Shown here: in pieces, positions 25,817 to 62,439 of the stretch
Layout: each line of letters starts with the position of its first letter
Numbering within the stretch: the first letter of the stretch is position 1
NCBI GenBank assembly: GCA_964016885.1
Contig: OZ024745.1
Coordinates: 98,642,001 to 98,706,000 of the forward strand
Length of the DNA stretch: 64,000 bases
From: Eledone cirrhosa
Lineage: Eukaryota
Direction: 5' to 3'
Position numbers and translations under genes: made by a program
The notes under the pieces: model-generated
The model's input: only the letters and a program-made list of their open reading frames with translations
Told to the model about the DNA's origin: nothing
Database searches by the model: none

Positions 25817-25847
<31 letters not shown>

Positions 25848-26430
25848 TTTAAAAGAATAGAGGTGTAACACACAAGTTATTATATATTGGTAAATGGAAT
25901 AGAAAATGCTGACAAATTGTTCACAGTGAAAAATAGTTTAATTAGGAATAAGTGAGAATTAGTAATTGTATTGGTTAGTATTCAGTTTTGGTTTTAAGTT
26001 TTACCGGTTGCGCAACCAGTAAAACTTAAAACCAAAACTGAATACTAACCAATACAATTACTAATTCTCACTTATTCCTAATTAAACTATTTTTCACTGT
26101 GAACAATTTGTCAGCATTTTCTATTCCATTTACCAATATATAATAACTTGTGTGTTACACCTCTATTCTTTTAAATATATATATATATATATATACATAT
26201 GTATATATCAATAAAAAATCCGAGGCATTATTCATTTGGTTTAGGTTTATTAAAATCCATTATATATATTTCACAACCGACAGACCATTATGTGGACCAC
26301 ACATCTGTGTTCGGTTAACCCCTTACTATAAATATATATATAGAGAGAGAGTGGGCAGGCCTAGGGAGACTTTGGATGAGGTGATAAAAGCTGACCTTGC
26401 ACAATTGCACCTGCCAAAGGTGATGACACA
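25597..26430. repeat. Spacerless palindrome with ~415-bp arms centred at 26011/26012
   Basis: The centre is GGTTGC|GCAACC. The arms are reverse complements apart from a few substitutions and (TA)n length differences. Confidence 0.95.
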
Positions 26431-27975: not shown

Positions 27976-29769
27976 TGGGCTAACAGACCAGTCCACCTAC
28001 CTGTCAATAGATCCATAACTGAGAGCACTGTAAAATTAAGTAATGTTTCATTAGTTTGCAGTGCAAAGTTCTTTTTCTCCTACATATAGAGTCTAAAGTG
28101 GAGTTTTGTTCCTCTATCCCATTTATTTGCTTAAATGTACAGCAATACAAAGTTCATAGTATACGAAGCACACTCAAGAGGTTTTGTGTTGATCAGAGTT
28201 AAATAAATGACTCTCTGATAAAAGTCTCAACACCTCTTGAATGTACCTCATATGTGAGTAGAAGAATTTTCAGTTATTTGTTTTTTTTTCTCTTGTTCGA
28301 GGAAGACCACAAAAATCATGGGCGGAGGTGGTGAGAGCTGATCTCAGATCGCTGAAGCTTACGGAGGAGATGACGAAGGACTGTGACAAATGGAGAGATG
28401 CTGTGTTGAATAGGACCCGTCCCACCCTTGCAAGCAGGGAAAAGCGGACGTAAAATGATGATGATGATGATGTTCCTTGAGTCTAGTTTGACAAAAAAGT
28501 ACCAAAAAATGAAAATAAAAAAGTTATTGATAAAACATGAAGACCAACAATAATCTTTCTCTCAGCTAATTTATAACAAAAGCAAATTTGTGGCTGATTA
28601 CAGTATTAGAATTAATTGAAAGAAAGCCATGGCAGGAACATTTCTAACATGACAGATATCCATTGGAATAACTTCAACTTAAAACTGTAAGGGAACGAAA
28701 CACTTGTTAGTTCTACACTGCTTTCCCTTCTGTTAAGAACTGTACTCAAACAGGGGCGCAGATATATAACTTGATGAGATGACAGATAACAGCACTAGCT
28801 ATTGTATAGTAACCATGTATACAATGAATTGCTAATGAAGCAATTCAAACCATTATCCTTTCAACAAATAGTTTGATACTCTAATCCTGGTTGGTGGTAA
28901 TAGAATTGTTTGAAAAGAGGTCATGGAGTGTGTGGAACCATTTAAACTTAGTATTACAAAATAATGAAATATGTATTAATAAAACATCACCTCTACTAAC
29001 CACTTGCAGTGGATTGCTATAGAAATGGCAGCTATCTAATAGTCAATGAACATAAAGAACACTTACAACAGCTTTTAGAATAATTGTGACTTTTATTACA
29101 TCTAATGTTCAATAATGAAAAAAGAGATAATAAAGCGAGAGTAAAGTGAAAATGAAAATGATTTAATCTGTTGTAGGTAACAGGAAATAGAAATGTTAAT
29201 TTACCTTCAAAATTATTGATTTTACTGACACAAGAGAAATATGTCACCATTTACATCTTGTTTTTATAATATGTTTATAATAATAATAATAATTGTTTCT
29301 ACTTTTGGCACAAGGCCAGCACTTCACCAGTGCGTGACTGGTACTTTAAATAATAATAATAATTGTTTCTACTTTTGGCACAAGGCCAGCAATTATCTCA
29401 GTGTATTACTGGTACTTTATTTTATCGACCCCGTAAGGGTGAAAGGCAAAGTTAACCTCAGCGGGATTTGAACTCAGACCATAAAGGGACGTAACTATGC
29501 TCGAAAGCATGGCGTCCGACCCTCTACCGATACTGCCAATAATAATAATAATAATGATGATTTCTTTATTAACCACCTGTTTATCTCTAAATCTCTTATC
29601 TTCCTTCATATATATATATATATATATAATGATTTCTCTCGAATGAAACAGTTCTAGTCCTGTAGAAGCCATTTCTATATTAAATATTTATACTCTGCTA
29701 TGTATTGAGTACCTTACTTACTGTGGTTACCCCCGATTGAACCCGGGATAAACTTTTATATATATATAT

Positions 29770-31970
29770 TGCCGAGATGCTGAAGGCATCTGGTACGGTG
29801 GGACACACCATGGTCACCCGGATAGTTAACCAAGTCGTACAGAATGGGGTTGTTCCGAAGGACTGGCGTAGCAGCATCATCGTTAACTGTTATAAGGGTA
29901 AAGGAGATGCCCTAGATAGGAGTAACTATAGAGGCATTAAATTAATCGACCAGGTCATGAAGGTCACGGAAAAAGTAATAGCGCAACTAATCAAAGAGAG
30001 AATTGATCTAGATGAAATGCAGTTCGGGTTTGTGTCAGGCAAAAGTACCACAGACGCTCTTTTCATTGTACGACAACTACAGGAGAAGTACCTAGCTAAA
30101 AGTAAACCCCTATACTTAGCTTTTGTCGACTTGGAGAAAGCCTTCGACAGAGTCCCCCGTTCCATTATCTGGTGGGCTCTTAGAAAACTAGGTGTTGACG
30201 AATGGCTTGTGAGAGCTATACAAGCCATGTATAAAGAAACAGTCAGCAAGGTTAGAATTAACAACGAATATAGTGAAGAGTTTAGCGTAAAAGTTGGCGT
30301 CCATCAGGGCTCTGTTCTCAGCCCCCTACTATTTATTATTGCCCTTCAGGCTATAACAGAGGAGTTCAAGACCGGTTGCCCATGGGAACTCCTATACGCA
30401 GATGACCTAACACTCATAGCTGAATCAATGGCCAAGCTAGAGAAGAAATTCCAAACATGGAAGCACGGCCTAGAATCAAAAGGCCTTAAAATTAACCTGG
30501 CTAAGACTAAAGTTCTAGTTTGTAAGAAAGAAAATAAGGCGGCGGTCCCTTCCGGGAAGTGGCCATGCTCAGTGTGTAGGAAAGGCGTAGGTAGAAACTC
30601 CATTTTGTGTCCCAAATGCAAAGTATGGGTGCATAAAAGATGTAGTGGGATCACAGGTAAGCTAACTAAGAACATAGATTTTACATGTGGCCGGTGCTCT
30701 GGTGCAATAAGTAGCAGCAAGTGCCCACAAAATACTAGCTCTTTCAACTGCGCAGAGGGTTCTATAGAAATAGTGGACAGCTTCCGTTACCTGGGTGACA
30801 AAATCAGCAGTGGGGGAGGGTGCTCTGAAAGTACAGTAGCTGGAGTCAGAACTGGATGGAAAAAGTTCAGAGAGCTTATACCACTATTAGCCGCTAAAGG
30901 GTTCTCCCTAAAAAAGAAAGGCAGGTTGTATGATGCCTGCATACGAACACCAATGTTGCATGGCAGTGAGACCTGAGCATTGTGTGCAGAGGATATACGC
31001 AGACTAGAGAGAAACGAAGCTTGCATGCTCCGCTGGATGTGTAATAGTAATATACGTGAACGGCAAAGCATAAACGAACTAAGGAAAAAATTAGAAATAA
31101 GAGGGATCAGATGTTGTTTACTCGAGAGAAGGCTACGTTGGTATGGTCACGTGATGCGCATGAAGGACGATAGCTGTATAACAAAGTGCAGGGCAATAAA
31201 GATAGACGGTAGCCACGGAATAGGCAGACCCAGAAAAACCTGGGACGAGCTGATAAATTCCGACCTCACACACTTACACCTCACCAAGACAATGTCACTG
31301 GACCGAGACCTTTGGCGGTACTCAGTAATAGAGAAGACCCGCCTTACCTAAATACAAAGTAAAACCTACTACAGTCAGTAGGCATCTCTAACAAAACACA
31401 CCCCCGTCCCACCACCCCCACCCCATCCACACCGCCTCTTTCAATGTAAAGTTATGTTGGTGCCACAACATCCAGGCCGAAACAAATGAGATCGTGTAGG
31501 TGTCACGTAAAAAAACACACAGTTCACGCTGTAATGTGGCCGTGTAGGCAACACAGTAAAAACCTCCCAGCCCCACACTGTAAATGTGGTTGGTGTTAGG
31601 AAGGGCATCCAGCTGTAGAAAACCCGCCAGACAGTCCACGCTGTAATGTGGCCGTGTAGGCAACACGGTAAAAACCTCCCAGCCCCACACTGTAAATGTG
31701 GTTGGTGTTAGGAAGGGCATCCAGCTGTAGAAAACCCGCCAGACAGTCCACGCTGTAATGTGGCCGTGTAGGCAACACGGTAAAAACCTCCCAGCCCCAC
31801 ACTGTAAATGTGGTTGGTGTTAGGAAGGGCATCCAGCTGTAGAAAACCCGCCAGATAGTCCTATGCGAGCAAGATAATCACTCTTGCCTCAAGTGGGAAA
31901 ACCCCCGTCCAAACCCATGCAAGCGTGGAACACGGACGTTAAACGTTGATGATGATGATGATGATGATGA
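29770..31970 (+). mobile_element. 5'-truncated RTE LINE with one in-frame stop and a 3'UTR containing three 112-bp tandem repeats
   Basis: ORFs 29777..30976 and 30980..31351 encode the RT. It has a (GAT)n tail and starts in (TA)n. Confidence 0.96.
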
Positions 31971-31973
31971 TAT

Positions 31974-34900
31974 ATGTATATATATATATATACAACCCAG
32001 AGACCCTCCCCTACGAGTGTCGACAAATGCCCAAAACTCCGAGTTGGTACCATCAATGTAGGCTCAATGAAAGGAAGAGCAGGAGAAATCGTAGAAATGC
32101 TAGAGCGAAAGGAAGTTGATGTATGCTGTGTGCAAGAGACTAGATGGAGAGGAGGGTCTGCTAGAGTCCTTGTAGGAAAAAGCCAGTGCTACAAATTTTT
32201 CTGGGTGGGAAATGACGATGGGATGGGTGGTGTAGGTATACTATTAGCTGACAAGTGGGTAGATAAAGTAATCTCAGTGTACAGGGTAAATGCAAGAATC
32301 ATTAAACTCAGACTAGTCCTGAATAAGACAATTACCACAATAATATCAGCTTACGCACCCCAATCGGGGCTGCCAGACGAACTTAAGGATAGGTTTTACG
32401 AGTCCCTAATACACACTACTGCTCTAACAGACGACAAGGACTTCCTAATCATTGCAGGAGATTTTAACGGACACGTAGGTAAACACTGCGACGGCTTCAA
32501 TAGAGTACATGGAGGCCATGGAGTTGGCACAAGGAATGAGGAAGGATTCAGACTTCTAGAATTCTGCGACGCCAATGACATGTCGATATGTAACACAAAC
32601 TTTAAAAAACCCGACAACCACCTGATCACCTATAGATCAGGGGAGCACTCTAGTCAGTTAGATTTTATTCTCATCAGAGGACGTGACAGATGGACGGTCG
32701 TAAACACAAAAGCCTTCCCTAGTGAGGAATGTACATCCCAACATAGCTTAGTTGTCAGCGACCTCACGGTCAGAACTAGACGAGCCCTGAAACAGAGGCC
32801 AACCTGGAGAAGAAAGATCTGGAAGCTGAAAGTCCCCTCAACCAGTAACAGATTTAAAGATATTTTACTCAACGCCTACGACAGTAAAGAAGAACAGATA
32901 GAGACATTTAACGTAGAAGAGAACTGGGAGTTCCTAAAAAATAACTTACTAGAGGCGACGGATGAGGTTTGTGGCTGGAGTAAGACCTCAAGCAGGAGGA
33001 GAGTGACTTGGTGGTGGAACAATAAGGTAGATGAAGCAGTCAAGGCCAAGAGACAGGCATGGAAAGAATGGAAGAACGGGGGGAGCAGGGTACATTACAT
33101 AGAGACCAAGAGGGAAGCTAGGCGACAAGTATACTTAGCTAGGAGGGAAGCAGAGGATAGAAAATTCAAGCATGTTTTACAACGTGAGGACCAGAAACAG
33201 GAGGTATTCAAGATTGCGAGGCAGTGTGTCAGAGATAGTTGTGATGTCATTGGAGAGAAGTGTATCCGGAATGATAAAGGTGAGCTTGCCCTCACAAGTG
33301 CTGAGAAGAAAGATGCATGGAAGAGTCATTATGATAGATTACTAAATGAGGAGAATGCATGGGAAGAAGAGACCCTACCCCACGTAGACCCTATAGAGGG
33401 ACCAGCAGTACAAGTCAGCGGCAGCGTAGTAAGTAAGGCAATCAGAGATATGAAGATAGGGAAGGCAACCGGTCCATCGGGTATAGCTGCCGAGATGCTG
33501 AAGGCATCTGGGTCTGTAGGTCACACTATAACCACACGTATCGTTAACCAGGTAATACTAGAGGGGGCCATACCAAAAGATTGGTGCAGTAGCATCATTG
33601 TCAACTGCTACAAAGGTAAAGGCGATGCACTAGATAGAGGAAACTATAGAGGTATAAAGTTGATGGACCAGGTCATGAAAGTAACAGAAAGAGTTATAGC
33701 ACAGCTGATTAGGGACCGGGTGAATATAGACGAGATGCAATTTGGGTTTGTTCCAGGGAAAGGCACCACTGATGCGCTCTTCCTTGTGAGGCAATTACAG
33801 GAAAAGTACCTAGCTAAAAGTAAGCCACTCTACTTGGCATTTGTCGACCTTGAGAAAGCCTTTGACAGAGTTCCACGTGCAGTAATCTGGTGGGCTCTTA
33901 GAAAACTAGGAGTAGATGAATGGCTTGTGAAAGCGGTACAAGCCATGTATAGGGGAGCAGTCAGCAAAGTTAGGATTGGCAATGAGTATAGCGAGGAATT
34001 TAGCGTACAGGTTGGGGTCCACCAGGGCTCTGTTCTTAGCCCTCTCCTGTTCATCATAGTCCTGCAGGCAATAACGGAGGAGTTTAAGACCGGATGCCCA
34101 TGGGAACTCCTGTATGCTGATGACCTCGCACTCATAGCTGAATCTATGGTAGAACTAGAGAATAAATTCCAAACCTGGAAGCAGGGACTAGAGAGAAAGG
34201 GCCTCAAAGTCAACATGACAAAGACTAAGGTCCTTATAAGTAGACGAGAAAACAGAACCCAGATCCCCTCAGGGAAATGGCCTTGCTCAGTATGTAGGAA
34301 AGGTGTAGGTAGGAATTCCATTCTTTGCCCCAAATGCAAACAATGGGTACACAAGAGATGTAGCGGGATCTCAGGAAGCTTAATTAAGAATGTAGGATTC
34401 ACATGCAGCAGCTGTGCTGAAACAGCAAGCAAACAGCCACAGGAAACAAGTACCACCAATCTCTGGGAGGGCCCTGTAGAAACAGTAGACAGCTTCTGCT
34501 ACCTAGGTGACCGAATTAGCAACGGAGGTGGGTGCTCAGAAAGTACAATAACTAGGGTAAGAACGGGATGGAAGAAGTTTAGGGAACTACTACCACTGCT
34601 AGCTGCAAAAGGCTTCTCCCTCAGAATGAAAGGCAGACTGTATGATGCGTGTATCCGAACAGCGATGTTGCATGGTAGTGAGACCTGGGCGCTGAAGGTG
34701 GAAGACTTACGTAGATTAGAGAGAAACGAAGCCTGCATGCTCCGATGGATGTGTAACAGTAATATACGTGAACGACAAAGCATAAATGAATTGAGAGAGA
34801 GACTGAGCATAAGAGGAATCAAATGCTGCGTGCAGGAGAGGCGGTTACGCTGGTATGGACATGTGATGCGTATGAAGGATGACAGCTGCATAAAAAGGTG

Positions 34901-35084
34901 CAGAGCACTAGAAGTTGATGGAAACCGCGGAGTGGGGAGACCCAAGATGACTTGGGATGAGGTGATAAAAGCCGACCTTACCCAACTACACCTCTCAAAG
35001 TCAATGACACACGACCGTGACTTCTGGCGTCACGCAGTAATACAGAGTACCCGACCTCCCATGGGTACATGCTGTAGCATATAA
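31974..35084 (+). CDS. RTE ORF: AP endonuclease, reverse transcriptase and PHD-like C4HC3 finger. The N-terminal MYIYIY is microsatellite-derived, so the true start is uncertain.
   Basis: Uninterrupted 1036 aa with VQETRW, AYAPQ, GDFNGHVG, LDFIL, YRGIKL, FVDLEKAFDRVP, GVHQGSVLSP, LYADD, CSVC...CPKC..WVHKRC...CSSC and RLRWYGHVMR. Confidence 0.95.
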   Translation: MYIYIYTTQRPSPTSVDKCPKLRVGTINVGSMKGRAGEIVEMLERKEVDVCCVQETRWRGGSARVLVGKSQCYKFFWVGNDDGMGGVGILLADKWVDKVISVYRVNARIIKLRLVLNKTITTIISAYAPQSGLPDELKDRFYESLIHTTALTDDKDFLIIAGDFNGHVGKHCDGFNRVHGGHGVGTRNEEGFRLLEFCDANDMSICNTNFKKPDNHLITYRSGEHSSQLDFILIRGRDRWTVVNTKAFPSEECTSQHSLVVSDLTVRTRRALKQRPTWRRKIWKLKVPSTSNRFKDILLNAYDSKEEQIETFNVEENWEFLKNNLLEATDEVCGWSKTSSRRRVTWWWNNKVDEAVKAKRQAWKEWKNGGSRVHYIETKREARRQVYLARREAEDRKFKHVLQREDQKQEVFKIARQCVRDSCDVIGEKCIRNDKGELALTSAEKKDAWKSHYDRLLNEENAWEEETLPHVDPIEGPAVQVSGSVVSKAIRDMKIGKATGPSGIAAEMLKASGSVGHTITTRIVNQVILEGAIPKDWCSSIIVNCYKGKGDALDRGNYRGIKLMDQVMKVTERVIAQLIRDRVNIDEMQFGFVPGKGTTDALFLVRQLQEKYLAKSKPLYLAFVDLEKAFDRVPRAVIWWALRKLGVDEWLVKAVQAMYRGAVSKVRIGNEYSEEFSVQVGVHQGSVLSPLLFIIVLQAITEEFKTGCPWELLYADDLALIAESMVELENKFQTWKQGLERKGLKVNMTKTKVLISRRENRTQIPSGKWPCSVCRKGVGRNSILCPKCKQWVHKRCSGISGSLIKNVGFTCSSCAETASKQPQETSTTNLWEGPVETVDSFCYLGDRISNGGGCSESTITRVRTGWKKFRELLPLLAAKGFSLRMKGRLYDACIRTAMLHGSETWALKVEDLRRLERNEACMLRWMCNSNIRERQSINELRERLSIRGIKCCVQERRLRWYGHVMRMKDDSCIKRCRALEVDGNRGVGRPKMTWDEVIKADLTQLHLSKSMTHDRDFWRHAVIQSTRPPMGTCCSI

Positions 35085-35388
35085 ACAATATGCCCCCCCC
35101 CCCCCCCCCCCCCCCCACCGCAAGGTGGTCGTGGAGGTGCCACGGCAAAAAAGCACCCAGCCCACACTGTAAAGTGGACGTGTAGGCGCCACGAAAAAGC
35201 ACCCAGCACTCACTGTAAATGAGGTTGGTGTTAGGAAGGGCATCCAGCTGTAGAAATCAAGCCAGATCAGTTCCTGTATGAGCAAGGCATGGTCAGCCGA
35301 CCAGACACTGCCCACAACAGGACAACCCGTCTAACCCATGCTAGCGTGGAAGAACGGACGTAAAACGGTGATGATGATGATGATGATG
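31992..35388 (+). mobile_element. Near full-length RTE-clade LINE
   Basis: Single long ORF, short 3'UTR and (GAT)n tail, flanked by (TA)n on both sides. Confidence 0.97.
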
Positions 35389-35426
35389 ATATATATATAT
35401 ATATATATAGATATATATATATATAT

Positions 35427-36727
35427 CGGAACTAGAGAAGAAATTCCAAGCATGGAAGCATGGCCTAGAATCAAAAGGCCTTAAAGTTAACTTGTTAAAG
35501 ACTAAAGTTCTAGTTTGTAGGAAGGAAAATAGGGCACCGGTCCCATCTGGGGAATGGCCATGCTCAGTGTGTAGGAAAGGAGTAGGCAGAAACTCCATTT
35601 TATGTCCCAAATGCAAAGTATGGGTGCATAAAAGATGTAGTGGGATCACAGGTAAGCTAACTAAGAATATAGATTTTATATGTGGCCGGTGCTCTGGTGC
35701 AATTAGTAGCAGCAAGTGCCCACAGAATACTAGCTCATTTCATTGCACAGATGGTTCTATAGAAAGAGTGGATACCTTCTGTTACCTGGGTGACAAAATC
35801 AGCAGTGGGGGAGGGTGCTCTGAAAGTACAGTAGCTAGAGTCAGAACGGGATGGAAAAAGTTCAGAGAGCTTATACCACTATTGGCCGCTAAAGGGTTCT
35901 CTCTAAAAATAAAAGGCAGGCTGTATGATGCCTGCATACGAACAGCAATGTTACATGGCAGTGAGACCTGGGCATTGTGTGCAGAGGATATACGCAGACT
36001 GGAGAGAAACGAAGCTTGCATGCTCCGCTGGATGTGTAATAGTAATATACGTGAACGGCAAAGCATAAACGAACTAAGGGAGAAATTAGGAATAAGAGGG
36101 ATCAGGTGTTGTTTACTCGAGAGAAGACTTTGTTGGTACAGTCACGTGATGCGCATGAAAGACGACAGCTGTATAAAAAAGTGCAGGGCGATAAAAATAG
36201 ACGGTAGCCACGGAGTAGGTATACCCAGAAAAACCTGGGACGACTTGATAAATTCTGACCTCACACACTTACACCTCTCCAAGACAATGTCACTGGACTG
36301 AGATCTTTGGCGCTACACAGTTATACAGAAGACCCGCCTTGCCTAAGTACAAAGCGAAACCTACAGTCAGTAGGCACCTCTAACAAAATACACCCCCGTC
36401 CCACTACCCCCACCCCATCTACACCACCCCCTTAAATGTGAAGTTATGTTGGTACCACAACATCCAGTCCGAAACAAATGAGGTCGTGTAGGTGTCACGA
36501 CAAAAAAACACACAGTCCACGCTGTAATGTGGCCGTGTAGGTAACACGGTAAAAACCTCCCAGTCCACACTGTAAACGTGGTTGGTGTTAGGAAGGCATC
36601 CAGCCGTAGAAAACCCGCCAGACAGTCCTGAGCAAGACAACCAATCTTGCCTCAAGTGGGATAATTCCCGTCCAGACCCATGCTAGCGTTGAAAATGGAT
36701 GTTAAACGATGGTGATGATGATGATGA

Positions 36728-36730
<3 letters not shown>
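35427..36730 (+). mobile_element. 5'-truncated RTE LINE, third copy in the head-to-tail array
   Basis: ORF 35492..36301 is the RT C-terminus plus the PHD-like finger, followed by the 3'UTR and a (GAT)n tail. Confidence 0.95.
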
Positions 36731-36767
<37 letters not shown>

Positions 36768-36769
<2 letters not shown>

Positions 36770-37107
36770 AAGCACATGGCTCAGTGGTTAGAACATTGGC
36801 CTTGCAATCGAAAGGTTGTGAGTTCAATTCTCAGACCGGGTGATGTGTTGTTTCCTTGAGCAAGACACTTCATTTCACATTGCTCCAGTTTACTCAGCTG
36901 TAGAAATGAGATGATAGGGACTGGAGTCCATATCATTCCACTGCAAAGTGGTCGTGGAGGTGCCACGGCAAAAAAGCACCCAGCACTCACTGTAAATGAG
37001 GTTGGTGTTAGGAAGGGCATCCAGCTGTAGAAATCAAGCCAGAATCAGTTCCCGTCCCACCCTTGCAAGCAGGGAAAAGCGGACGTAAAATGAAATGATG
37101 ATGATGA

Positions 37108-37443: not shown

Positions 37444-38402
37444 TTATATAGTTATAGAGGTGCGTATATACATTTTAATTTATATTTTTAATTATTGTGT
37501 GTCTACCCTGCCTTCCATAGAATATAGATTCCATACACTGGTGGTTTTCCTGTTTTATTGATAGCACACTTTCTCTCTCTAGTTTGTTACCTTTTCAAAC
37601 ATATTGTATTTTAAAGAGCTCAGGATTCCTATTCCTTTGAGCACATTATTGACAGGGAATAACGAGAGTCTATGGCTCCATTAATTTGTCATAATATGTA
37701 TATATATAAGGAAAAAAAACAAATCGAAAATGCAACTGGAGTCGTTTTAAGAATATTTATTTGGTTCCTTTACTGGTTTCGTGTTCGGATGTTACTTCTG
37801 TTTTATATGGAAAAAAGTGGCTCGAAATGGTAGGTTTTTAGAAAAGTGATTTGATTTGTTACCGCCTTTTCAGTTTGTATGGCGTTTATAACATATGTTT
37901 ATAGCTCTGGTTTTTTAAACTATGGAGCGCTTGCCAGCATGCCTCTGAATTTGCGTTACGTTTCGCTTTTTCTATCCGCCGAAATGCGATTCTTGCTGAA
38001 TTTATATTTGTATTAATCTCCCGAGTCTTACAATTAATCTGTTAATAATTCTATTGACAGATTAATTGCATAAGTTTATTTTAAAAACTACCCGATTGAG
38101 TGCTTATTCGATTTGTGCTATTTATGCAATTTTTTGCATGATTTACATATACTGAATTCATTTGCCAAAATCTGGGGTTTTTCCCCTTGTGAGTCACACA
38201 TGTGCTTTTACAAAACACTACATCATTCACAACACTGGCGCAGAACAAAATACCTGTTGATAATGTGATATTCCTTGTTCGATCATTATACCAAAAGCTT
38301 ATGGTTTTAAGCAGACAGTATTATTGATTTAGGTCTCATAGAAACCCTGTATTTGGATTTTACCACCAATTCCAATGGGTCCAGGTTTGTTGTATATATG
38401 TG

Positions 38403-38461
<59 letters not shown>

Positions 38462-38675
38462 GTTAAAGTGTACATCTACATATGTATACGGAAGTACTAG
38501 TATGCATATAAATACACACATGTATACATATGTACATGTACCGAGTTTTTCACTAGACACTTTACAGTGAGTGTCCAGCTAGTCTGTATGTAAACAAACA
38601 GACGAACCGGGTTTTAAAGTCATACGAGTTTTCAAGGAAACACACTTCCTCTATTCTCCAGAGAGCCAGACAGGA

Positions 38676-38718
38676 ATATTGGACTAGTTTCGATGTTATT
38701 ACATCTCATCAGCAATAT
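38676..38718 (-). ncRNA. Minimal type I hammerhead ribozyme (intact consensus)
   Basis: ATATTG-CTGATGA-GATGT aata ACATC-GAAA-CTAG-TC-CAATAT, with perfect helices I and II, a palindromic ACTAGT helix III and a GUC triplet. Confidence 0.92.
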
Positions 38719-39372
38719 ATACCTATCTTCCGGCTTCTCTGGAGAATTGTAAAAGCACATATCGTTATATGCTTTTTCTATGAAAATCAGTAGTGGGCAG
38801 ACTAATTTGCATAGAACGTGAGTCATTGTATGCGCCGGTTCAGCGGAAACGATAAAAACAAATAACGAAACGAAATTAAATTTCGTTTCGCTTCTAACTC
38901 ACTTTTGTATGACTGACGCTTAAACAATTAAGTTAAAGTGTACATCTACATATGTATACGGAAGTACTAGTATGCATATAAATACACACATGTATACATA
39001 TGTACATGTACCGAGTTTTTCACTAGACACTTTACAGTGAGTGTCCAGCTAGTCTGTATGTAAACAAACAGACGAACCGGGTTTTAAAGTCATACGAGTT
39101 TTCAAGGAAACACACTTCCTCTATTCTCCAGAGAGCCAGACAGGAATATTGGACTAGTTTTAATTGTTTAAGCGTCAGTCATACAAAAGTGAGTTAGAAG
39201 CGAAACGAAATTTAATTTCGTTTCGTTATTTGTTTTTATCGTTTCCGCTGAACCGGCGCGTACAATGACTCACGTTCTATGCAAATTAGTCTGCCCACTA
39301 CTGATTTTCATAGAAAAAGCATATAACGATATGTGCTTTTACAATTCTCCAGAGAAGCCGGAAGATAGGTAT

Positions 39373-39415
39373 ATATTGCTGATGAGATGTAATAACATCG
39401 AAACTAATCCAATAT
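39373..39415 (+). ncRNA. Minimal hammerhead ribozyme, second copy, with a G>A change in helix III
   Basis: ATATTG-CTGATGA-GATGTAATAACATC-GAAA-CTAATC-CAATAT. Confidence 0.8.
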
Positions 39416-40019
39416 TCCTGTCTGGCTCTCTGGAGAATAGAGGAAGTGTGTTTCCTTGAAAACTCGTATGACTTTAAAACCCGGTTCGTCTGTTTGTTTA
39501 CATACAGACTAGCTGGACACTCACTGTAAAGTGTCTAGTGAAAAACTCGGTACATGTACATATGTATACATGTGTGTATTTATATGCATACTAGTACTTC
39601 CGTATACATATGTAGATGTACACTTTAACTTAATTGTTTAAGCGTCAGTCATACAAAAGTGAGTTAGAAGCGAAACGAAATTTAATTTCGTTTCGTTATT
39701 TGTTTTTATATATATATATATATATATATATGATTTTATCATTTATTTTGTCTGACTTGTTTAGCTTGACTTGTTTTTTGGCTTAGGTGGTTAATGCCTT
39801 CTTGACTGCCTTTTCAGTTGTATGGCGTTTATAACATATGTTTATAGATCTGGTGTTTTAAACTATGGTGCACTCTGAATTTGCATTACGTTTCGCTTTT
39901 TCTACCCACCGAAATGCGATTCTCGCTGAATTTATATTTGTATACCGCCTTTATATATATATATCCAGAATTAGCCGTCGAAACGGCTTGAGCTCAGCCG
40001 TCGAGGTCTTACTGGTTCC

Positions 40020-40052
<33 letters not shown>

Positions 40053-40838
40053 GTGAGGTTTTTTTACAAAATGAAAAAAAAACGAGGTGTCCTACACGAG
40101 TGAAAGTATAAGGAAAAAAGATGAAATCGAAAATGCAACTGGAGTCTTTTTTTTTTAAATATATTTATTTGGTTCCTTTACCGGTTTCGCAGTTCTGGTG
40201 CTTTTCAAAAGTAGAATTGAGATGGAGGATTTGTGGTTTTTCTCATATCTGGTTGGTGTTCGAATGTTTCTTCTGTTTTATATGGAAAAAAGTGGCTCGA
40301 AGTGCTAGGTTTTTAGAAAAGTAATTTGGTTGATGACTGTCATGTGAATAATTATAATAAATTTTGCGCCAGTTTGCGTTACAAAGTTCTTATTATATTT
40401 GCCTTCAAAACAAGGGGTCTCAGATTGTTTTTTCATATATGAGTGAAATTTGGTTGGTTGATGCAGTCACGTGAATAAGCACATCAGCTTTCGCACCAGT
40501 TTGTGTTTGAAATAAAGAAAGTAGAGATATGTATGTTTATTTGTGCGCTGGTGTGTGTGTGCGTGTGTGTGCCTGTGGAAGATGATTCTATTAGTAGAAA
40601 TGGGGGAGGGAGTTGTGTGTGTGTGTATGGGTGTTATATGTGTGTGTGGGAGTATGGTTAGCATGTTAAGATGGAGAGAATATATATGTTTTTGTGTGTG
40701 TGTGTGTAGGAAAGTGATTCCGCTAATAGAAATGGGGGAGGGAGTTATGTGTGTGTGTGTGGAGGGGTATGGTTAGCATGTTAAGGTGTTAGAGTATTAA
40801 TGTATATAGGTGTTATGTGTGTGTATATATATATATAT

Positions 40839-41419: not shown

Positions 41420-41473
<54 letters not shown>

Positions 41474-41960
41474 AGGCACATGGCTTAGTGGTTAGAGCAT
41501 TGGCCTTGCAATCGAAAGGTTGTGAGTTCAATTCTCAGACCGGGTGATGTGTTGTTTCCTTGAGCAAGACACTTTATTTCACATTGCTCCAGTTTACTCA
41601 GCTGTAGAAATGAGATGATAGGGACTGGGGTCCATATCATTCCACTGCAAAGTGGTCATGGAGGTGCCACGGCAAAAAAGCACCCAGCACTCACTGTAAA
41701 TGAGGTTGGTGTTAGGAAGGGCATCCAGCTGTAGAAATCAAGCCAGAATCAATTCCCGTCCCACCCTTGCAAGCAGGGAAAAAGCGGACGTAAAATGAAA
41801 TGAATGAATGAAATGAATGAATATATATATATGTAGGAGGTGAGTTTTATTGTAGTACAATAAAGCAATGCAGATATCGGATAAGAAGCACTCTACAGTT
41901 TGTAGGACTGGAGTATACATAATATATAAGATCAAAAGATGGTTAAAGGAGTTCCATGTA

Positions 41961-60969: not shown

Positions 60970-61659
60970 TTATAAATAATATATACATTCGTAAGTCCAT
61001 ACAGAAATTAAACCACCGATGTATGGATAAGACTTAGCAGCAACACATCTGAAACCTGTGTGTCTGTAGAGTTGTCTAGCGTGTTCGTTTACTTCAGTTG
61101 TAATAAGTTCGATGGCATCGTAACCTTGTCTGCGACAAAACTCAATCGACGAATTCAAAAGATCTCTTGCAATGCCGCGCCTCCGGTAATTTGGGTGTAC
61201 AAACATTCGCCGCAACCAGGCAGCCTTTTTCACATTTTTATCAAAATTAGCTTTGTCCTTTTTCACAATAGCAATGGTACCGACCACTTTGTCTTTACAT
61301 ACTGCCACCCAGAAATTGTTATCTGGGTCAGATAGATAGACGCCGGTGACATCGGACATATCGCGAAAAGGTGGTCCGTAAAGATAATAAAGGAATCCCA
61401 ACAGAGTCAAGAAATAAATACATGCACAGTAGCAAAGAATTCCTCCGAAAACCTTAGCCAATGTGATATTACTTTCGGTTTTCATTAAAACATATGTCAT
61501 AACGAACGAAAATAAGAGTGCAGAACTCCGTCGGAAAAGGAGAGCCTTAAACAACAGGTTAATGTAATTTTTACTACCTAGTTTCACTACAGTCCATGTT
61601 TCTTGGCTGTCAGCTACAGTCCATTGGCGTATTGTGTGTCTTGTAGGCGATTCTGTCAT
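60970..61659 (-). CDS. GNAT-family N-acetyltransferase, camello/NAT8-like, single coding exon, 229 aa
   Basis: N-terminal IRQW..AD, a hydrophobic membrane segment, DMSDV...Y....NNFWVAV...VVGTIAI, LRRMFVHPNYRRRGIA (acetyl-CoA motif A) and ELITTEVNEHARQLYRHTGF (motif B). Confidence 0.93.
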   Translation of the reverse strand: MTESPTRHTIRQWTVADSQETWTVVKLGSKNYINLLFKALLFRRSSALLFSFVMTYVLMKTESNITLAKVFGGILCYCACIYFLTLLGFLYYLYGPPFRDMSDVTGVYLSDPDNNFWVAVCKDKVVGTIAIVKKDKANFDKNVKKAAWLRRMFVHPNYRRRGIARDLLNSSIEFCRRQGYDAIELITTEVNEHARQLYRHTGFRCVAAKSYPYIGGLISVWTYECIYYL

Positions 61660-62439
61660 AATGGTGGTTTTATTTACTTGTTTCCCAGTTAAAGTGCTGC
61701 TCTTTGAACCTCATACTCGACTAAAACATCTTATATAGCAATAATGACAGGTAGGCTTTAGCTTCAGTAACGCTAGAAGTAATCAGAGTTACTTCCCTTT
61801 ACTGGAAGTATTATGTCAACATTGACTCAAATTTACATACGGCGACGAATTGGACGTATCTATCGCTAGAACGTCCGATAGAATGCTTTGCTGTTTTTGT
61901 TCCGGCTCTCTAAGTTCAAATCCCACCGAGATCAACTTTGTCTTTTATCCTTTCGTGTGGGAAAGTGATGGTATCGTAGATAGCTTAGGTTGTCAGGGTT
62001 CAAGTCCGGCCAAGATAGACAGAGAGGCATGTACGAAGAAAAAAAGTACCAATCCAGTTCTTCCTCTATACCACACTCTCTTCTCTCCTTCGCTGAAAGA
62101 AATTGGCTGTGTTCAGACATGAAGAAGGGATGGGTTCCGGCAGGTTTAAAACGCTATATATCACTACGGTGTCTCTACGACCCCACACAAAATAAACTCA
62201 TACACCTCAAAATAGAGTCGTGTTCTGTAAGAAGCGGTGAATTCTAACATTTCTTCTCCTACGAAAGTATCCTGTCTAAACAGTTAAACTTTACTATTTT
62301 TCTTGTAGTATACAAATTAGTTCAATTTTGTGAACTTGATTAGCTGATGTTATTTACTTATTTTCCCGTTTCGATCGGCAGCCTACAAAATAGGAAATCC
62401 AGCAGTAAAGTAGTTAGTTGATAGTCGCCAAAGATACTT

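Follow-up and report, generated by a model that had tools for sequence, protein, structure and literature searches.

Organisation of the locus

The window, that is the whole stretch of 64,000 nt analysed here (Eledone cirrhosa, assembly GCA_964016885.1, contig OZ024745.1, positions 98,642,001 to 98,706,000 of the forward strand), carries at 38393-39731 a 470-nt unit in two opposed arms, flanked on either side by a (TA)n tract. The locus has the following features, in window coordinates:

38393..38455, no strand: left (TA)n target tract
38456..39160, minus strand: inverted, tail-less arm of 705 nt (1.50 monomers), its outer end being fixed site B
38676..38718, minus strand: intact type I hammerhead core with helix I, a 5-bp helix II and a palindromic ACUAGU helix III
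38682..39151, minus strand: full 470-nt monomer from cut site to cut site (predicted circle)
38805..38825, minus strand: octamer ATGCAAAT and TGACTCA motif, the octamer being common to the sister families L141, L152 and L153
39146..39160, minus strand: 3' half of a hammerhead (AAACUAGUC/CAAUAU) at the truncated 5' end of the minus arm
39160, no strand: head-to-head arm junction with 1-nt microhomology
39161..39709, plus strand: direct, tailed arm of 549 nt (1.17 monomers), its outer end being fixed site A
39266..39286, plus strand: TGACTCA and octamer, second copy
39373..39415, plus strand: hammerhead whose helix III palindrome is broken by a private G>A at 39407
39636..39709, plus strand: 'tail' between sites B and A, about 70-74 nt, including a 25-nt hairpin at 39671-39695
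39710..39731, no strand: right (TA)n target tract

With m1 placed at 39161, the minus arm comprises m241-470, m1-470 and m1-5, and the plus arm m1-470 and m1-79. The period of 470 and the lengths of both arms agree with the original prediction of near-identical 470-nt units in 1.5 minus and 1.17 plus copies. The plus arm (TAATT) also begins, as had been noted, at the register where the minus arm ends, and the two share 1 nt at 39160. The inversion break indeed falls inside the GAAA of the ribozyme (m241), but the meaning attached to this position does not hold: 3 of 165 arm 5' ends in the family lie in m236-249, and the placement is largely chance. The arms differ at two monomer positions, each a G>A change in a single unit, and no variant is both private to the locus and fixed in it. 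Over 39020-39540, reads and contigs from four runs, DNA or unlabelled, confirm the repeat family and its site-A end; none spans the head-to-head junction of this locus.

Elsewhere in the window, tandem LINE pieces with AP endonuclease, RT and PHD finger occupy 29741-36301 (plus strand; longest frame 1,037 aa, 31971-35084), and a 246-aa open frame with a GNAT acetyltransferase domain is found at 60970-61710 (minus strand). A 300-nt duplicate with 98% identity (36730-37029 and 41434-41733) begins in (TA)n, has a weak tRNA-like match at 41481-41538 and is probably a SINE. The locus is flanked by older 3' UTR remnants at 40020-40760 (minus strand) and 37789-37860, 82-88% identical to the Penelope-like element (PLE) family L142/L143, in which an RT+GIY-YIG frame of 938 aa is open in the copy L142. 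A head-to-head remnant of the end of another PLE family (25817-26208, L148-like, about 92%) explains a perfect palindrome that matches mir-3910 at 25971-26052.

The hammerhead and the monomer

The core in the minus arm consists of a 6-bp helix I plus a long helix, CUGAUGA, a 5-bp helix II, GAAA, and ACUAGU before C, with the predicted cut between 38682 and 38681. Rfam HH9 matches at 38660-38730 (minus strand, 34.2 bits, E 8e-5) and at 39361-39431 (plus strand, 29.4 bits, E 0.0027), both under the gathering score of 52. In an alignment of just six related rows, one of them partial, both sides are changed in 7 of 19 pairs, a result reached in 0 of 500 shuffles and read as supportive rather than as a probability. 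The hammerhead had been described as minimal; with a helix II of 5 bp and a long helix I, its only weak helix is helix III. In the monomer, closing a helix III of 1 bp has a predicted cost of about 6 kcal/mol.

Every unit of the family has a type I hammerhead, and at this locus one of the two full sites is mutated. In the plus arm helix III reads ACUAAUC, and the A at 39407 occurs in 1 of 411 family units, while run X22 has G at this position in all 405 of its minus-direction reads, as does every contig of run X1. The predicted energy of a double hammerhead is -14.6 kcal/mol when intact and -8.4 kcal/mol with the plus-arm mutation, and the plus-arm ribozyme is likely impaired. Of the GUC/ACUAGU hammerheads predicted for each arm, the minus-arm copy stands as intact, the plus-arm copy is mutated and the third site is present as a 3' half only. 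Since only one core is intact, the others being a mutated site and a half site, and since its arms would pair in a read-through transcript, this locus is likely an ordinary copy and a dead end. On its own it would likely be a poor source of the 470-nt monomer that its tandem units had been expected to release.

The monomer has no stop-free frame longer than 88 codons and a G+C content of 171/470, below 50%. Units abut units without an LTR layout. The monomer is stably self-paired: the circular MFE is -160.5 kcal/mol with 67% of positions paired, and the 470-nt linear fold of 38691-39160 has a z of -12.8. A plant LTR retrozyme was considered and rejected, as it needs a type III hammerhead in LTRs, whereas the hammerhead of this unit is type I with an open helix I. 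The octamer and TGACTCA sit about 100-110 nt upstream of the ribozyme core and are a possible internal promoter; newt satellite 2 has an snRNA-type promoter of which this arrangement is reminiscent.

A young repeat family

By its sequence characters, the repeat is a young non-coding family that we assign to the metazoan non-LTR retrozymes. The exact 34-nt pattern of the plus-arm end (site A) has 1,879 matches in the 3.0-Gb genome (G000), the GUC-type core 3,244, and the site-B pattern, which covers some subfamilies, 755 on the forward strand, its reverse-strand count being inflated by overlapping matches. The family thereby occupies roughly two thousand places. Divergence between subfamilies is 3-11%, and the units of an insertion depart by about 0.27% from the state of their locus, which indicates a young family. 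In about 40% of units GUU replaces GUC. The nearest neighbour of a unit lies in its own locus for 88 of 101 units (9 ties), and one 9.3-kb insertion holds 18 identical full units over both arms. Differences between units could be masked by assembly polishing; yet many arrays show private differences.

The longest uninterrupted array of the same monomer noted here exceeds 29 kb (L170-L172, G000:C1:95640000-95669700). Units of this array are more diverged (mean 12.6 differences in L095), and it is possibly a source or a secondary satellite. Long arrays have period-2 to period-6 patterns, that is higher-order repeats, which points to DNA-level duplication after insertion, so that rolling does not account for the whole tandem length. 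In L163, a 26-nt deletion is found in two alternating units. The core, the octamer and the ACUAGU palindrome are conserved in sister families with 61-64% identity, whose cut triplet is GUA:

L141:5566-6650: sister retrozyme, two-armed, with homologous ends
L152:7080-9001: sister retrozyme
L153:2390-2959: sister retrozyme

Two-armed insertions with fixed ends

The opposed arms are the rule in this family. Of 97 site-A loci taken in list order, 94 were counted, after removal of L058 (duplicate layout) and L095/L096 (inside a long array), and at least 73 of these have an adjacent inverted arm, very short arms being missed by this count. The outer end of the inverted arm lies at m2-11 (site B) in 61 of 69 visible ends, mostly at m5, m7 or m10. 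Conversely, 18 of 20 loci picked by site B, chosen as having no listed site-A match, end at site A on the opposite side, including three very short A arms recognised by eye. Both arms of L007 have site-B ends. The site-A-to-(TA)n ends are also present in an independent run, in 12 contigs of X1.

The two fixed outer sites, A (m79) and B (m5-10), are about 70 nt apart, while the inner arm ends are scattered across the monomer. As to circular permutation, for which a genome-wide check was suggested with the original prediction, the sampled loci have variable inner ends, but their outer ends are fixed at two sites and there is no random permutation. The junctions between arms overlap by 0-4 nt in 42 of 59 cases. 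The direct arm starts within 10 nt of the outer register of the inverted arm in only 4 of 59 insertions with arms >150 nt (p=0.27), so that the register continuity seen at this locus is not a general rule and is largely chance, and the proposal of one concatemer of about 1.25 kb with a flipped 5' part finds no support in that form. A looser excess exists: 18 of 59 direct arms end within 50 nt of site B (p 0.07 under a uniform null, 0.004-0.01 under a length-decay null), a pattern that would be compatible with an encounter of two RTs on the same molecule. A better reading of the arms is that of two cDNAs, each primed independently at its own fixed RNA site.

In L1 twin priming, the second DNA end primes an inverted cDNA and the junction has short microhomology. 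The present insertions share the second, inverted cDNA primed from the second end and the short microhomology at the junction; they differ in that the second site is fixed, the arms can exceed one unit and the register is usually discontinuous.

Shared variants point to a single template

In 74 of 75 two-armed loci both arms belong to the same subfamily, where chance would give 19%; in the remaining locus the arms are identical. In a few loci the arms are as unlike as separate loci (L110, 11 differences). Variants were polarised in 138 loci against their nearest sampled neighbours (5 of 143 loci had no usable arms and were dropped), and a variant is called private if absent from the 12 nearest sampled loci. 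Duplicate stretches of L083 and L091 (in place of L082 and L092) were excluded from the spectrum counts.

On the ribozyme strand, the 71 locus-private variants that are fixed in all units include 29 A>G and 8 T>C (p=2e-4), or 24 and 8 when counted as unique sites (p=0.002); a first pass over 100 loci had given 18 and 8 (p=0.076). The 5' neighbours of the fixed A>G changes are U (18), A (7), C (4) and G (0), in agreement with the ADAR motif given in PMC8096273. The fixed A>G variants are likely scars of ADAR-like RNA editing. Variants of single units (n=496) are symmetric, with 49 A>G and 52 T>C. Fixation over both arms is seen for 37 locus-private variants, which are spread over 28 of 80 loci, against 7 that are fixed in one arm only; the both-arm variants alone retain a modest bias (15 A>G, 6 T>C, p=0.047). 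The sample covers about 140 of some 2,000 loci (about 7%), so private edits may descend from unsampled parents or an earlier cycle.

Edits are thus copied into every unit, and this calls for one monomer as the template. This monomer could have been a circle or a linear, ribozyme-cut molecule, on which tandems would arise by RT jumping from the 5' end to the 3' end. The linear monomer predicts the same shared edits and the same-subfamily arms, and a weak excess of arm 5' ends just 3' of the cut site (m246-280, 18 of 165, p=0.067) hints that some templates are linear. Template jumps usually add or lose bases, however, and the cut/ligation junction is free of indels in 409 of 411 units; a ligated circle explains this better than a cut monomer on which the RT jumps repeatedly. 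The length of 56 of 75 direct arms and of 39 of 55 inverted arms suffices to read across this junction. Moreover, most arm ends lie away from the cut site, and circles dominate among the coral, mussel and axolotl retrozymes treated in PMC7229834. We regard the linear monomer as unlikely.

Less probable still is a template in the form of an uncut transcript of a tandem array, a linear multimer, inserted by PLE or L1-type twin priming, that is, a flipped concatemer. Tandem arrays do exist (up to >29 kb), the excess of direct-arm stops near site B over the length-decay null would be expected, and the anole PLE uses mainly an uncut RNA substrate in vitro, as reported in PMC11167929. On a multimer, on the other hand, units would be edited independently, and instead of about 86 extra single-unit A>G changes expected from independent per-unit editing at the observed rate, -1 is observed. 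Private variants are fixed over all units and both arms, variants within a locus are mostly missing from other loci, and exact register continuity is as rare as described above. The original prediction of recent reverse transcription of a circular or multimeric RNA with a twin-priming-like inversion is accordingly upheld for recent reverse transcription, most likely of a circle, primed from both DNA ends, and its multimeric version loses ground on the missing single-unit A>G changes.

Penelope-like elements and the search for a partner

The family shows the layout of PLE-mobilised insertions: a fixed 3' end, 5' truncation, an inverted adjacent copy, a tail at one end and a (TA)n target. The genome also contains RT+GIY-YIG elements that show tailed and tail-less opposed arms in (TA)n in the same way (L151, L155), with a tail of about 64 nt, measured by eye, in L151. 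A PLE terminal repeat homologous to the monomer was searched for in 80 PLE loci (50 GIY-YIG loci and 30 of a further PLE family, with >10,000 GIY-YIG candidates in the genome), and none was found. A 30-nt likeness of the tail to L145/L149/L154 lies antisense inside their coding region and was set aside as chance, and a 63% match in L135 is a sister retrozyme adjoining a PLE and not the pLTR of that PLE.

PLE-like coding DNA is present in the examined stretch of 16 of 139 retrozyme loci, but a PLE ORF (RT and GIY-YIG) in sense continuity upstream of an arm is found in none of the 139, which argues that the unit is not the pLTR of a coding element. The earlier reading as a retrozyme rather than a coding-PLE terminus is thus sustained, though the ends are fixed. 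In L048, L032 and L027 the abutting coding pieces are head-to-head and belong to three different families; the older, degraded pieces at L048 and L032 more likely reflect target deletions than shared events. The L027/L218 composite (G000:C3 near 345.447-345.450 Mb; L218:316-3140) joins a site-B retrozyme arm head-to-head with a 5'-truncated copy of a very young, GC-rich PLE, with (TA)n at both outer ends, and could have arisen in a single event that involved two RNAs or in two events and a deletion. Copies of this PLE are 99-100% identical (2,060 candidates), and its family has short partial tandems, internal deletions and a hammerhead-like core near its end. It shows only one terminus type, and is therefore a lead rather than an identified partner.

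That the unit is a pLTR, a DNA-level satellite or an assembly artefact is very improbable: its pLTR-like fixed ends, the 16 of 139 loci with PLE-like coding DNA, the higher-order repeats of long arrays and the lack of a record over 39020-39540 that spans the junction speak for it, but the missing sense-continuous ORF, the head-to-head pieces of three families and units that abut units stand against a pLTR, and dispersed loci, varied junctions, fixed ends, a strand-asymmetric spectrum and the 12 X1 contigs exclude a general artefact.

Proposed mechanism

The locus is probably a young (TA)n insertion of a non-coding 470-nt retrozyme, in which a PLE RT/endonuclease would have primed both break ends on one, presumably circular, RNA. 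As the structure and covariation suggest, tandem copies would be transcribed and cut to monomers by dimeric hammerheads. The monomers would be ligated into circles which, judging from the variant spectrum, would undergo ADAR editing and would be left uncut by a dimer-dependent ribozyme. A PLE endonuclease would then cut both strands of (TA)n, and each 3' end would start synthesis at one of the two fixed internal positions, A (m79) and B (m5-10); the fixed ends are observed directly, the enzyme is taken to be that of a PLE. Each RT would travel around the circle, not always equally far, and the truncated cDNAs would then be joined to each other, mostly with the 0-4 nt overlap seen at the junctions. 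Some long arrays would expand later at the DNA level, as their higher-order repeats attest. We lean, if only slightly, towards the wider view that in every insertion a single circular RNA molecule, read by two Penelope RTs at once, has been captured as DNA, with ADAR editing of that circle as the largest single source of heritable change in the family; A>G makes up 29 of the 71 template-level changes, with an excess of about 0.2 A>G per monomer.

Relation to known systems

The features of metazoan non-LTR retrozymes that can be tested from sequence (PMC7229834; PMC7761336; 10.64898/2026.07.22.740005) are found in this family. As in the retrozymes of coral, mussel and axolotl/newt (satellite 2), the unit is a non-coding, AT-rich, self-paired tandem repeat with one type I hammerhead, is present in thousands of copies and co-occurs with PLEs (PMC7229834; 10.64898/2026.07.22.740005). 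The weak palindromic helix III is shared with axolotl HHR_Amex1 (PMC7229834; 10.64898/2026.07.22.740005). The unit of 465-470 nt compares with 170-400 nt in the 2020 paper (PMC7229834) and 51-972 nt in the preprint (10.64898/2026.07.22.740005). In the passages of both sources consulted, reverse transcription of retrozyme circles by PLEs is proposed, not demonstrated, and Li et al. 2026 suggest that tandems come from local amplification (10.64898/2026.07.22.740005). The two-armed insertions with two fixed ends and the editing scars described here are absent from the passages of PMC7229834 and 10.64898/2026.07.22.740005 consulted, and our literature search, of incomplete coverage, returned no publication with the two-armed retrozyme layout or the shared-edit test.

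For EN+ PLEs, Craig et al. 2021 describe partial tandems, an inverted 5'-truncated copy, a tail and (TA)n targets, and call the origin of the tandem/inverted structure undefined (PMC8557442). For the anole PLE, Frangieh et al. 2024 report that the two strands of the DNA are both primed, at two internal sites of the RNA which delimit the tail (PMC11167929). The present family agrees with these elements in its fixed 3' end, variable 5' truncation, inverted copy, one-end tail, microsatellite target and two start sites, and differs in that the unit has no ORF and a tail of about 70-74 nt rather than 30-40 nt (PMC8557442; PMC11167929). Its hammerhead is also full-sized and not of the minimal pLTR type, and the 80 PLE loci yielded no homologous pLTR.

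The class and the PLE insertion footprint are thus known, and the value of the family lies in strong though indirect evidence, all of it from DNA, for a single circle and in a ready test system. As a substrate it is short and non-coding, its two start sites and its target are mapped, and young insertions number in the thousands. The comparison of shared and private editing separates circular from multimeric templates from genome sequence alone. If the wider view set out above is true, these insertions would prove at the genomic level that animal retrozymes use the rolling-circle route long proposed for them, and the enzyme acting in trans would be named by composites such as L027/L218.
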